Assembly: GCF_003334315.1 (NCBI RefSeq) | Contig: NZ_QOWR01000003.1 | Length of the DNA: 64,000 bases | Reading direction: 5' to 3' (one strand) | DNA from: Escherichia coli | Lineage (GTDB): Bacteria; Pseudomonadota; Gammaproteobacteria; Enterobacterales; Enterobacteriaceae | Part shown: positions 12,572 through 50,083 of the stretch, in pieces | Position numbering within the stretch: position 1 is the first letter of the stretch | Layout of the letters: every line of letters starts with the position of its first letter | Translations under genes and position numbers: made by a program | Notes under the pieces: generated by a model | Database searches by the model: none | Seen by the model: only the letters and a program-made list of their open reading frames with translations | Told to the model about the DNA's origin: nothing

Positions 12572-13936
12572 ATGAACGATTATAAAATGACGCCAGGTGA
12601 GAGGCGCGCGACCTGGGGTTTAGGGACCGTATTCTCGTTGCGCATGCTGGGCATGTTTATGGTTCTGCCGGTTCTGACCACGTACGGCATGGCTCTGCAA
12701 GGTGCCAGCGAAGCATTAATCGGTATTGCCATTGGTATTTATGGTCTGACTCAGGCCGTTTTTCAGATTCCGTTTGGCCTGCTTTCCGACCGCATTGGTC
12801 GCAAACCATTAATTGTCGGTGGGCTGGCGGTGTTTGCCGCCGGTAGCGTTATCGCTGCGCTTTCCGACTCCATCTGGGGAATTATTCTGGGCCGGGCGCT
12901 ACAAGGCTCTGGAGCAATTGCCGCCGCCGTTATGGCGCTGCTTTCCGATCTCACGCGCGAACAAAACCGCACCAAAGCGATGGCGTTTATCGGCGTGAGC
13001 TTTGGCATTACCTTTGCCATTGCGATGGTGCTTGGCCCGATCATCACTCACAAACTTGGGCTGCACGCGCTGTTCTGGATGATCGCTATTCTGGCAACGA
13101 CCGGCATTGCGTTGACCATTTGGGTTGTGCCCAACAGTAGCACTCACGTACTTAATCGTGAGTCCGGAATGGTGAAAGGCAGTTTCAGTAAAGTGCTGGC
13201 GGAACCGCGGCTGCTGAAACTCAACTTTGGCATTATGTGTCTGCATATTTTGCTGATGTCGACGTTTGTTGCCCTGCCCGGACAACTGGCTGATGCAGGG
13301 TTCCCGGCGGCTGAACACTGGAAGGTCTATCTGGCGACAATGCTAATCGCCTTTGGCTCGGTCGTGCCTTTCATTATCTACGCTGAAGTTAAGCGCAAAA
13401 TGAAGCAAGTCTTTGTCTTCTGCGTCGGGTTGATCGTGGTTGCGGAAATTGTGTTGTGGAACGCGCAAACGCAGTTCTGGCAACTGGTGGTCGGCGTGCA
13501 GCTTTTCTTTGTGGCGTTTAATTTGATGGAAGCCCTCCTGCCCTCACTTATCAGTAAAGAGTCGCCAGCAGGTTACAAAGGTACGGCGATGGGTGTTTAC
13601 TCCACCAGCCAGTTTCTTGGCGTGGCGATTGGCGGTTCGCTGGGCGGCTGGATTAACGGCATGTTTGACGGTCAGGGGGTATTTCTCGCTGGCGCAATGC
13701 TGGCCGCAGTGTGGCTGACAGTCGCCAGTACCATGAAAGAACCGCCGTATGTCAGCAGTTTGCGCATTGAAATCCCGGCGAACATTGCCGCAAACGAGGC
13801 GTTAAAAGTGCGTTTGCTAGAAACTGAAGGCATCAAAGAAGTGTTGATTGCAGAAGAAGAACATTCAGCTTATGTGAAAATCGACAGCAAAGTGACGAAT
13901 CGCTTTGAGATAGAACAGGCAATTCGTCAGGCATAA
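12572..13936 (+). CDS. yajR: MFS transporter YajR
   Basis: 454-aa product MNDYKMTPGERRATWGLGTVF... from ATG at 12572 with GAGGTGG SD; ORF track start further upstream rejected. Confidence 0.9.
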   Translation: MNDYKMTPGERRATWGLGTVFSLRMLGMFMVLPVLTTYGMALQGASEALIGIAIGIYGLTQAVFQIPFGLLSDRIGRKPLIVGGLAVFAAGSVIAALSDSIWGIILGRALQGSGAIAAAVMALLSDLTREQNRTKAMAFIGVSFGITFAIAMVLGPIITHKLGLHALFWMIAILATTGIALTIWVVPNSSTHVLNRESGMVKGSFSKVLAEPRLLKLNFGIMCLHILLMSTFVALPGQLADAGFPAAEHWKVYLATMLIAFGSVVPFIIYAEVKRKMKQVFVFCVGLIVVAEIVLWNAQTQFWQLVVGVQLFFVAFNLMEALLPSLISKESPAGYKGTAMGVYSTSQFLGVAIGGSLGGWINGMFDGQGVFLAGAMLAAVWLTVASTMKEPPYVSSLRIEIPANIAANEALKVRLLETEGIKEVLIAEEEHSAYVKIDSKVTNRFEIEQAIRQA

Positions 13937-13944
13937 AAAACGCG

Positions 13945-14041
13945 GCGAATTGCCTGCTGCGCTACGCTTATCAGGCCTACAAAGTTTCTGAATTACAAAC
14001 CTTTGTAGGCCGAATCAGGCGTTCATGCCGCATCTGACATG
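13945..14041. repeat. BIME: two REP elements in inverted orientation
   Basis: GCCTGCTGCGCTACGCTTATCAGGCCTAC and GTAGGCCGAATCAGGCGTTCATGCCGCATCTGACATG between the convergent yajR and yajQ ends. Confidence 0.8.
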
Positions 14042-14063
14042 AACAAAACGCACATAGTCGCGA

Positions 14064-14555
14064 TTAATCGCGGAAGTTTTTGAACTGGAACGGCTGACCG
14101 AGATCGCCACCACGTACCATCGCCATGACAGCCTGCAAATCATCACGAGATTTGCCCGTTACGCGGATTTCATCGCCCTGAATTTGCGCCTGCACTTTCA
14201 GTTTGCTGTCTTTGATCATCTTGACGATTTTCTTCTGGGTCGCGCTCTCAATGCCCTGTTTCAGTTTCGCTTCCACAAACCAGGTTTTACCGCTATGAAC
14301 GATATTCTCCGGTACATCCAGCGAACTGCCTTCAATGCCGCGCTTCAGCAGCTTGGCACGCAGAATATCCAGCAACTGATTGACCTGGAAATCGGACTCG
14401 CTCAACACTTTGATGGTTTTGCTGGCGTCGTTCAGCTCAAATGAGGCTTCAACGTTACGGAAGTCAAAACGGGACTCCACTTCGCGGCTCGCGTTATCGA
14501 CCGCGTTACGTGCTTCCTGAAGATCAACTTCAGAGACAATATCGAAAGATGGCAT
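14064..14555 (-). CDS. yajQ: Nucleotide-binding protein YajQ (UPF0234)
   Basis: 163-aa product [22 protein letters not shown]... from ATG (rc of 14553-14555) with GGAGAGG SD; ORF track extension rejected. Confidence 0.9.
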
Positions 14556-22077: not shown

Positions 22078-22085
22078 GAGTCCAG

Positions 22086-22118
22086 GCCTGATGAGACGTG
22101 ACAAGCGTCACATCAGGC
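22086..22118. repeat. REP-like palindrome
   Basis: GCCTGATGAGACG...CGTCACATCAGGC between the convergent yajO and pgpA 3' ends. Confidence 0.55.
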
Positions 22119-22130
22119 ATCGGTGCACAA

Positions 22131-25786: not shown

Positions 25787-26272
<486 letters not shown>

Positions 26273-28170: not shown

Positions 28171-28270
28171 ATGCCGGATGCGGCGTAAACGCTTTGTCCG
28201 GCCAACAAAAGCACGTAAATTCAATATATTGCTGAAATAACGTAGGCCTGATAAGCGTAGCGCATCAGGC
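28171..28270. repeat. Two REP elements (BIME)
   Basis: ATGCCGGATGCGGCGTAAACGCTTTGTCCGGCCAAC and GTAGGCCTGATAAGCGTAGCGCATCAGGC between tsx and yajD. Confidence 0.8.
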
Positions 28271-28285
28271 AATTTTACGTTTTAA

Positions 28286-47967: not shown

Positions 47968-48067
47968 TGCCGGATGCGGCGTGAACGCCTTATCCGCCCT
48001 ACGCGGTTCTGGCACATTTTGCAGGCCTGATAAGACGCGGCAAGCGTCGCATCAGGCATGATGCGCC
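47968..48067. repeat. Two REP elements (BIME)
   Basis: TGCCGGATGCGGCGTGAACGCCTTATCCGCCCTAC and GCAGGCCTGATAAGACGCGGCAAGCGTCGCATCAGGCATGATGCGCC between the convergent araJ and mak ends. Confidence 0.85.
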
Positions 48068-50044: not shown

Positions 50045-50083
50045 ATGCCGGATGCGACGCCTGCCGCGTCTTATCCGGCGTAC
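50045..50083. repeat. REP element
   Basis: ATGCCGGATGCGACGCCTGCCGCGTCTTATCCGGCGTAC 18 nt after the rdgC stop. Confidence 0.8.

Follow-up and report, generated by a model that had tools for sequence, protein, structure and literature searches.

A Z2+Y BIME between the convergent yajR and yajQ genes of Escherichia coli forms the body of the yajQ 3' UTR

The gap between the convergent yajR and yajQ genes of Escherichia coli holds a BIME made of two inverted REPs, a near-perfect Z2 unit on the left and a Y unit, decayed in K-12, on the right. This BIME makes up the body of the yajQ 3' UTR, and the hairpin that marks the end of the messenger includes no more of it than its outer edge. The explanation that we favour, and that we hold to be probable, is that an ordinary Z2 plus decayed-Y BIME is transcribed into the yajQ 3' UTR and that the mRNA comes to end after a terminal hairpin mainly by trimming. 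The element is an ordinary representative of a known class of repeat, in the bacterial genome that has been studied most. It matters little in itself: the E. coli K-12 catalogues of REPs and BIMEs go back to the 1980s-1990s, and the yajR-yajQ copy is a routine one. It does call for caution with a familiar label: the equation of a REP with a 3' stabiliser, a gyrase site or an IHF site is not automatically transferable to this locus, because there is no IHF motif, the Y REP has decayed and the mRNA end, as measured, falls outside the REP stems.

The yajR-yajQ gap and its two REP units

The DNA analysed is a stretch of 64,000 nucleotides, hereafter the window. Around the BIME it is base-for-base identical to E. 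coli K-12 MG1655, and window position x corresponds to position 459238 - x of NC_000913.3, a mapping that was checked base by base. The features discussed below are collected in Table 1. The gap between the two convergent genes spans 13937-14063 and measures exactly 127 bp, as originally predicted. The statement that the REPs fill this gap was slightly generous, as the two REPs and their linker cover 89 of the 127 bp, while the predicted bounds, 13945-14041, bracket the element properly. The stem of the Z2 REP (GCCTG, from 13952) begins 15 nt past the yajR stop codon, and the Y REP begins 24 nt past the yajQ stop codon, on the yajQ strand. The two units are inverted, 24 nt apart, with their CTAC (13977-13980) and GTAG (14005-14008) ends facing each other; these are the tetranucleotides conserved at the foot of REPs, and both units have kept theirs.

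Table 1. Features of the yajR-yajQ gap (window coordinates)
Feature	Position	Strand	Remarks
yajR stop codon TAA	13934-13936	+	ORF end
yajQ stop codon	14064-14066	-	ORF end
Z2-type REP (palindromic unit), TGCC...CTAC orientation	13951-13980	+	TGCCTGCTGCGCTACGCTTATCAGGCCTAC; 1 mismatch to the Z2 consensus
Linker between the CTAC and GTAG ends	13981-14004		AAAGTTTCTGAATTACAAACCTTT; 24 nt, nearly palindromic, locus-specific
Decayed Y-type REP	14005-14039	-	TGTCAGATGCGGCATGAACGCCTGATTCGGCCTAC; + strand starts GTAG; 5 edits to the Y consensus
Terminal hairpin of yajQ mRNA	13911-13956	-	11-nt arms, 100% complementary; loop with the yajR stop codon
Central hairpin	13974-14011		Two REP tails and linker ends; perfect 11-bp arms GGCCTACAAAG (13974-13984) / CTTTGTAGGCC (14001-14011)
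Alternative hairpin of yajQ-sense RNA	14021-14044	-	GUUCAUGUC / GGCAUGAAC; predicted folds
Weak terminator-like hairpin	14058-14083	+	TCGCGATTAATCGCGG then AAGTTTTTGA; faces yajR transcription, overlaps the yajQ stop codon

REPs were located with a bit-parallel edit-distance scan, using Y, Z1 and Z2 consensus sequences that agree with the REP queries printed in Durrant et al. (2024). The left unit is one edit away from the Z2 consensus as against nine from Z1. Such a match to Z2 is expected zero times by chance, and the best chance matches found in 60 simulated 64-kb sequences were at 9 edits for Y and 7 edits for Z2. RefSeq NC_000913.3 carries no REP repeat_region features, and this includes the K-12 site used for comparison, which we take to be REP1. 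The REP1 and REP325 copies of K-12 lie 1-3 edits away from the consensus sequences employed. Rfam does not contain a REP family; the only related match, of 15.9 bits, was to naRNA4 (REP325), whose gathering score is 59.5. This match was so far below the gathering score that it could not be used as a threshold, and a covariance model of our own was therefore built from 11 REPs of other loci, with both yajR-yajQ units left out. When the whole window was scanned with filters off, this model found nine REP matches. The left REP scored 33.7 bits (E ~9e-7) and the right REP 21.1 bits (E ~0.002), where the background of non-REP sequence starts at about 12 bits. The right REP also aligns with the Y half of Rfam naRNA4, with two pairs broken. 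Thus, the original prediction of two inverted REPs between the convergent genes is confirmed by the consensus scan that it proposed as well as by the covariance model, both units standing above background, and the extragenic element of the yajR-yajQ gap is a BIME. It shares with the classical Y, Z1 and Z2 REPs their length of 30-37 nt, the imperfect palindrome, the GTAG/CTAC foot, the extragenic position between convergent genes and the presence of many copies in the window. The right copy of K-12 departs from them in that it is without two basal pairs and, as modelled, would no longer fold into the REP hairpin.

Class of the element and its linker

The conserved GTAG/CTAC at the foot of the REP palindrome is described by Ton-Hoang et al. 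(2012), who also set out the classes of BIMEs: BIME-1 joins Z1 and Y through a long L linker, often with an IHF site; BIME-2 consists of Z2 and Y in tandem copies with short linkers; and atypical BIMEs are mixtures. The yajR-yajQ element shares with BIME-2 its inverted Z2 and Y pair, but BIME-2 arrays are tandem, with S and s/l/r linkers, whereas all E. coli genomes sampled have one pair only at this site, and its 24-nt linker is unlike the 17-18-nt linkers of REP325 and of window positions 48003-48020. With BIME-1, or RIP-RIB, it has in common two inverted REPs in single copy and a linker lying between the CTAC and GTAG ends, but Z1, the 35-nt L motif and the IHF consensus are all missing. 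Judged by sequence, we class the element as a Z2+Y BIME whose linker is peculiar to the locus, and as neither a BIME-1 nor a canonical tandem BIME-2.

A derivation of the 24-nt linker from a truncated L motif seemed plausible by eye and was rejected, as the alignment of the linker to two L motifs was no better than that of shuffles; K-12 REP1 and window 28207-28241 have L motifs that agree with each other at 30 of 35 positions. The IHF consensus, WATCAANNNNTTR, has no match with at most one mismatch in the gap (13937-14063), and together with the absence of the L motif this leaves the suggested role as an IHF site not borne out. A match to the same consensus is found in another BIME of the window, in its L linker (28219-28231).

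The yajQ mRNA ends beyond the BIME

Supplementary file 1 of Adams et al. (2021) gives Term-seq 3' ends for MG1655 in three growth conditions. The sole 3' end reported between K-12 positions 441410 and 446773 is 445327(+), on the yajQ sense strand, with 5,179 and 1,381 reads in two of the three entries that the file has for it. It corresponds to window 13911(-), the 61-nt string printed by Adams et al. being the reverse complement of window 13901-13961, and its position 25 nt within yajR has it classified there as antisense to that gene. This position is 153 nt past the yajQ stop codon, beyond the entire BIME and 40 nt beyond the Z2 REP. In these Term-seq data there is no 3' end at either REP of the yajR-yajQ BIME, on either strand, nor is there one on the yajR strand. 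The proposed check, whether transcript 3' ends map at the REP stems, thus has a negative outcome in the published data, in which 13911(-) is the only end. The related suggestion that the REPs act as mRNA 3' stabilisers survives in part: the outer edge of the Z2 REP does belong to the hairpin that marks the end, but the mapped 3' end is at neither REP stem.

The mapped end falls 5 nt after the stem of the terminal hairpin, a perfect helix of 11 bp. The upstream arm, CAGGCAAUUCG (13946-13956), is composed of the outer TGCCTG of the Z2 REP and five flanking bases, and the downstream arm (13916-13926) of the yajR codons CAG GCA ATT CG (Gln-Ala-Ile-Arg), so that the hairpin shares only the outer 6 nt of the Z2 REP. 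With its extensions, it has a predicted free energy of -22.6 kcal/mol (z -5.05), and it was predicted in all eight alleles folded. In B2/E alleles, the helix is lengthened by CGCC/GGCG pairs, as read off the printed fold, because of a synonymous CGT-to-CGC change in yajR. The last yajR codons (13916-13933, CAG GCA ATT CGT CAG GCA TAA with the stop) hold the sequence CAGGCA twice. Both copies are complementary to the REP start TGCCTG, so that any REP placed here in the same orientation would find a partner in the coding sequence.

Substantial transcription continues past the hairpin. In Supplementary file 2 of Adams et al. (2021), a Rho termination region is listed at 445853(+), i.e. window 13385(-), antisense to yajR; reads drop from 268 to 13 in untreated cells, whereas bicyclomycin leaves 105 of 232 (Rho score 9.3, p 1.7e-18). 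As this region lies about 0.5 kb into yajR antisense, many polymerases pass both the BIME and the hairpin. The same study places a second Rho region inside the yajR ORF on the sense strand, at 446281(-), window 12957(+), with a score of 2.7. The U-tract that follows the terminal hairpin is poor, with five U among the eight nucleotides after the stem in K-12, and is not conserved, reading UUCUAUCU in K-12 and UUCAACCU or UUCAACAU elsewhere. This argues for trimming over intrinsic termination as the probable origin of the end at 13911, which could instead be generated by intrinsic termination at the hairpin. The T6 run at 13936-13941 was also considered as a possible intrinsic terminator of yajQ and was discarded: it lacks an adequate stem upstream, and the mapped end falls 25 nt beyond it.

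Predicted folding of the BIME RNA

The structures described here are thermodynamic predictions. In the course of transcription the Z2 REP hairpin may form preferentially; it and the terminal hairpin compete for the sequence CAGGC. Taken singly, the REP hairpins are weak in the predictions (-8.2 to -11.9 kcal/mol), with no advantage over shuffles. The Z2 hairpin folds as expected, if weakly (-9.5 to -10.3 kcal/mol, not better than shuffles), and in the predicted fold of the K-12 Y copy the canonical REP stem is not adopted. What replaces it on yajQ-sense RNA is an alternative hairpin involving the interior of the Y REP and 5 nt of its right flank, kept in seven of the eight alleles folded, L005 being the one whose predicted fold is without it. 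Inside the BIME, the strongest predicted structure is the central hairpin, GGCCUACAAAG / CUUUGUAGGCC, which reaches -20 to -22 kcal/mol whichever strand is folded, with z about -5, and is part of the predicted fold of all eight alleles. The terminator-like hairpin that faces yajR transcription is weak (-6.9 kcal/mol, z -1.4), and the corresponding pattern-scan matches occur at chance rate.

Conservation within E. coli

The BIME is a core-genome feature, as anticipated. Of 5,426 complete E. coli genomes, 5,425 have a match to the 401-nt region containing it, and in 5,285 the match covers at least 80% of that region, so that the element itself is present in some 5,285 of the 5,426. The same two REPs are found at the same place in K-12-like strains, in Nissle 1917 (B2), in O157:H7 and in others, and the gap measured 127 nt in 10 of 10 further contigs. 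Among alleles, the gap is 90.7-100% identical, which makes it less conserved than the 401-nt stretch with its coding flanks. Variation is unevenly distributed within it: among 11 distinct alleles, 2 of 30 columns vary in the Z2 REP, 8 of 24 in the linker and 9 of 35 in the Y REP.

An NA3664-type allele, seen at two of the loci compared, differs from K-12 by seven substitutions in the Y REP, at positions equivalent to window 14013-14036. By eye, the alignment gives this Y REP a perfect 7-bp basal stem (GCCGAAT/ATTCGGC), with an upper stem moved by one register relative to K-12 in the aligned sequences; the predicted fold shows a different hairpin. The substitutions look like compensatory evolution or like gene conversion from another REP.

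The same gap in related genera

Relatives were searched with a degenerate DNA pattern for the YajQ C-terminus, which returned at least 120 loci; the matches listed include no other Escherichia species. Among these matches, the loci that have yajR as the convergent neighbour differ in what occupies the gap. A hairpin of 29-33 nt, preceded by an A-tract and followed by a T-tract and thus laid out as a compact bidirectional terminator, takes it up in Enterobacter, Leclercia, Lelliottia, Siccibacter and Silvania. A 46-nt gap with one REP-like palindrome is found in Salmonella enterica subsp. arizonae, and a 45-nt gap with one perfect palindrome, TGTCAGATGGCG...CGCCATCTGACA, in two Citrobacter species (sp. 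FP75 and Cu233). Two REPs, again tail to tail, occupy the 79-107-nt gap of the other Citrobacter listed, and their order is the reverse of that in E. coli, the Y-like unit being the one nearer to yajR and the Z2-like unit the one nearer to yajQ. Pseudocitrobacter has a gap of 96 nt with two REPs of its own genus type. The yajR-yajQ gap thus illustrates how one and the same convergent gap can be filled by a compact bidirectional terminator, by a single REP, or by BIMEs that differ from genus to genus.

Aligned with the E. coli BIME, the arms of the FP75/Cu233 palindrome correspond to its outer arms (window 13946-13962 and 14027-14049), and this alignment takes in the seemingly decayed TCTGACA of the K-12 Y REP. 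Going by the alignment, either the interior was deleted in these Citrobacter or it was inserted in E. coli. Since the outer arms of the BIME align with single palindromes, a REP may well have been present at this site before these genera diverged; the comparison suggests that it was then remodelled in each lineage, as BIMEs are known to be (Ton-Hoang et al. 2012). The bidirectional intrinsic terminators occupy the same position as the E. coli BIME and presumably do the same job, but the BIME is without proper U-tracts, and yajQ transcription reads through it to the Rho site.

Origin of the yajQ 3' end and alternative explanations

In the explanation that we favour, the BIME is simply transcribed on the yajQ strand, where it constitutes most of the 153-nt 3' UTR. 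RNA polymerase passes it and travels about 0.5 kb into yajR antisense, to be terminated there by Rho, and the stable yajQ mRNA ends 5 nt after the strong hairpin formed by the outer edge of Z2 and the last yajR codons. We infer that this end is produced mainly by 3'-to-5' exonucleases trimming the RNA back to the terminal hairpin, and that the structured BIME RNA behind it, with its central and alternative Y-REP hairpins, may serve as a second barrier. Dar & Sorek (2018) put forward such a model for Rho-dependent transcripts, involving stable stem-loops and trimming by PNPase and RNase II. The presence of a Rho region downstream and of a poor U-tract at the hairpin fits their model, in which diffuse Rho termination is followed by trimming to a stem-loop. 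REP325, in the yjdM-yjdN gap, which is described as both terminator and stabiliser (Harris et al. 2026), offers a parallel, being likewise a transcribed 3' UTR element with partial read-through and Rho downstream. It differs in being a six-fold tandem array between tandem genes, as opposed to one pair between convergent genes; a further difference is that at yajQ the mapped 3' end is outside the REP stems. Harris et al. (2026) describe REPs as local regulators in 3' UTRs and count a REP between 207 of 704 convergent gene pairs. They also report that terminal REPs have no general effect on mRNA half-life, which weighs against the favoured explanation.

A more specific proposal is that the insertion of the BIME beside the yajR stop codon made a new determinant of the yajQ 3' end, namely a composite hairpin that, in place of either REP, would set this end inside the yajR coding sequence. 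The synonymous CGT-to-CGC extension of the helix in B2/E strains fits this proposal, which we put forward tentatively, rating it at somewhat less than an even chance; if true, the composite hairpin would tie synonymous sites of yajR to the stability of yajQ mRNA. We are more doubtful that the element is a neutral selfish repeat, a REP/BIME remnant spread by the REP-associated transposase, with no selected function and the useful hairpin as a by-product. The decay of the Y REP, the free variation of the linker and of the Y REP, the lower conservation of the gap compared with the stretch that includes its coding flanks, and the tolerance of the site to an IS621 insertion all agree with neutrality, as does the fact that related genera manage with a 29-33-nt bidirectional terminator, with one REP or with a BIME of opposite make-up. 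So does the finding that BIMEs are plastic and are substrates of TnpA-REP (Ton-Hoang et al. 2012). A neutral remnant sits less well with the retention of the same place and the same 127-nt length in nearly all E. coli, with a Z2 REP that is almost invariant, and with a terminal hairpin that is kept in all alleles folded and lengthened in B2/E by the synonymous change in yajR.

The remaining explanations assign a function to the REPs themselves, and we consider each of them unlikely. As a classical stabiliser, the REP stem-loops would stop 3' exonucleases and leave mRNA ends at the foot of a REP hairpin, as they do at many E. coli loci. Indeed, 3' ends directly after REPs are found elsewhere in the same Term-seq table, for example at 25802(+) and 50365(+), and REP-associated ends make up 24% of Rho-dependent termini (Dar & Sorek 2018), in line with such a role. 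At yajR-yajQ the Term-seq data speak against it on both strands, and so do the weakness of the isolated REP hairpins, no better than shuffles, and the non-canonical fold of the Y unit. A translational brake on yajR, whereby REP structure near the stop codon stalls the terminating ribosome and lowers yajR expression, strikes us as a shade less likely still. Liang, Rudd & Deutscher (2015) are reported to describe ribosome stalling and lower expression of the upstream gene when a REP lies less than 16 nt past its stop codon. The Z2 stem, at 15 nt from the yajR stop, obeys this rule but at its very limit; a predicted helix on yajR-sense RNA begins only 5 nt past the stop, but the isolated Z2 hairpin is weak at -9.5 kcal/mol, and Rho termination within yajR at 446281(-) also weighs against a brake. 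The least probable explanation, to our mind, is a site acting at the DNA level on the topology between the convergent genes, bound by gyrase as in BIME-2 or by IHF as in BIME-1. Convergent transcription builds up positive supercoils, which speaks for such a site. The Z2 and Y make-up is that of BIME-2, and the Topo-seq study (Sutormin 2018) reports gyrase cleavage sites to be enriched in a subset of BIME-2, mostly at Y REPs. The yajR-yajQ element is nevertheless a single pair and not a tandem array, its Y REP has decayed by five edits, and yajQ and yajR are without mention in the accessible portion of the Topo-seq supplements. An IHF site is disfavoured by the lack of a consensus match within one mismatch in 13937-14063 and by a linker unrelated to L.

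Other REPs in the window and rearrangements of the gap

Another BIME, at 28172-28271, has a Y REP first and a perfect Z2 REP last; the 35-nt L motif between the two contains an IHF-like site, ATTCAATATATTG. By its composition it is a hybrid ("atypical") BIME, in which L is joined to Z2 and not to Z1. The covariance model found further REPs at 47968-48058, 50046-50083, 22082-22119 and 60120-60156: a Y+Z1 pair with an 18-nt linker, a solo Y/Z1 hybrid, and two degenerate solo units (27.8 and 26.1 bits).

Rearrangements of the yajR-yajQ gap recur, since about 140 of the 5,425 genomes fall short of 80% coverage of the 401-nt query. In strain 1368KP (NZ_CM173843.1), yajR and the whole BIME are absent from the left of yajQ; a gene for a tetratricopeptide-repeat protein comes to within 59 nt of the yajQ stop codon and is followed by a GC-rich hairpin of another sequence, GGGCCACCACGGTGGCCC. 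The Z2 REP contains, at 13970-13980, the sequence ATCAGGCCTAC, which is exactly the natural target reported for the bridge-RNA recombinase element IS621 (Durrant et al. 2024). In strain cS108a (NZ_CM176581.1, 3537000-3539300), an IS621 copy lies inside the Z2 REP of the yajR-yajQ BIME. The junction reads ...CTTATCAGGCCT / IS621 / CTACAAAG, with 1277 bp plus a duplicated CT core, and is equivalent to window 13977/13978.
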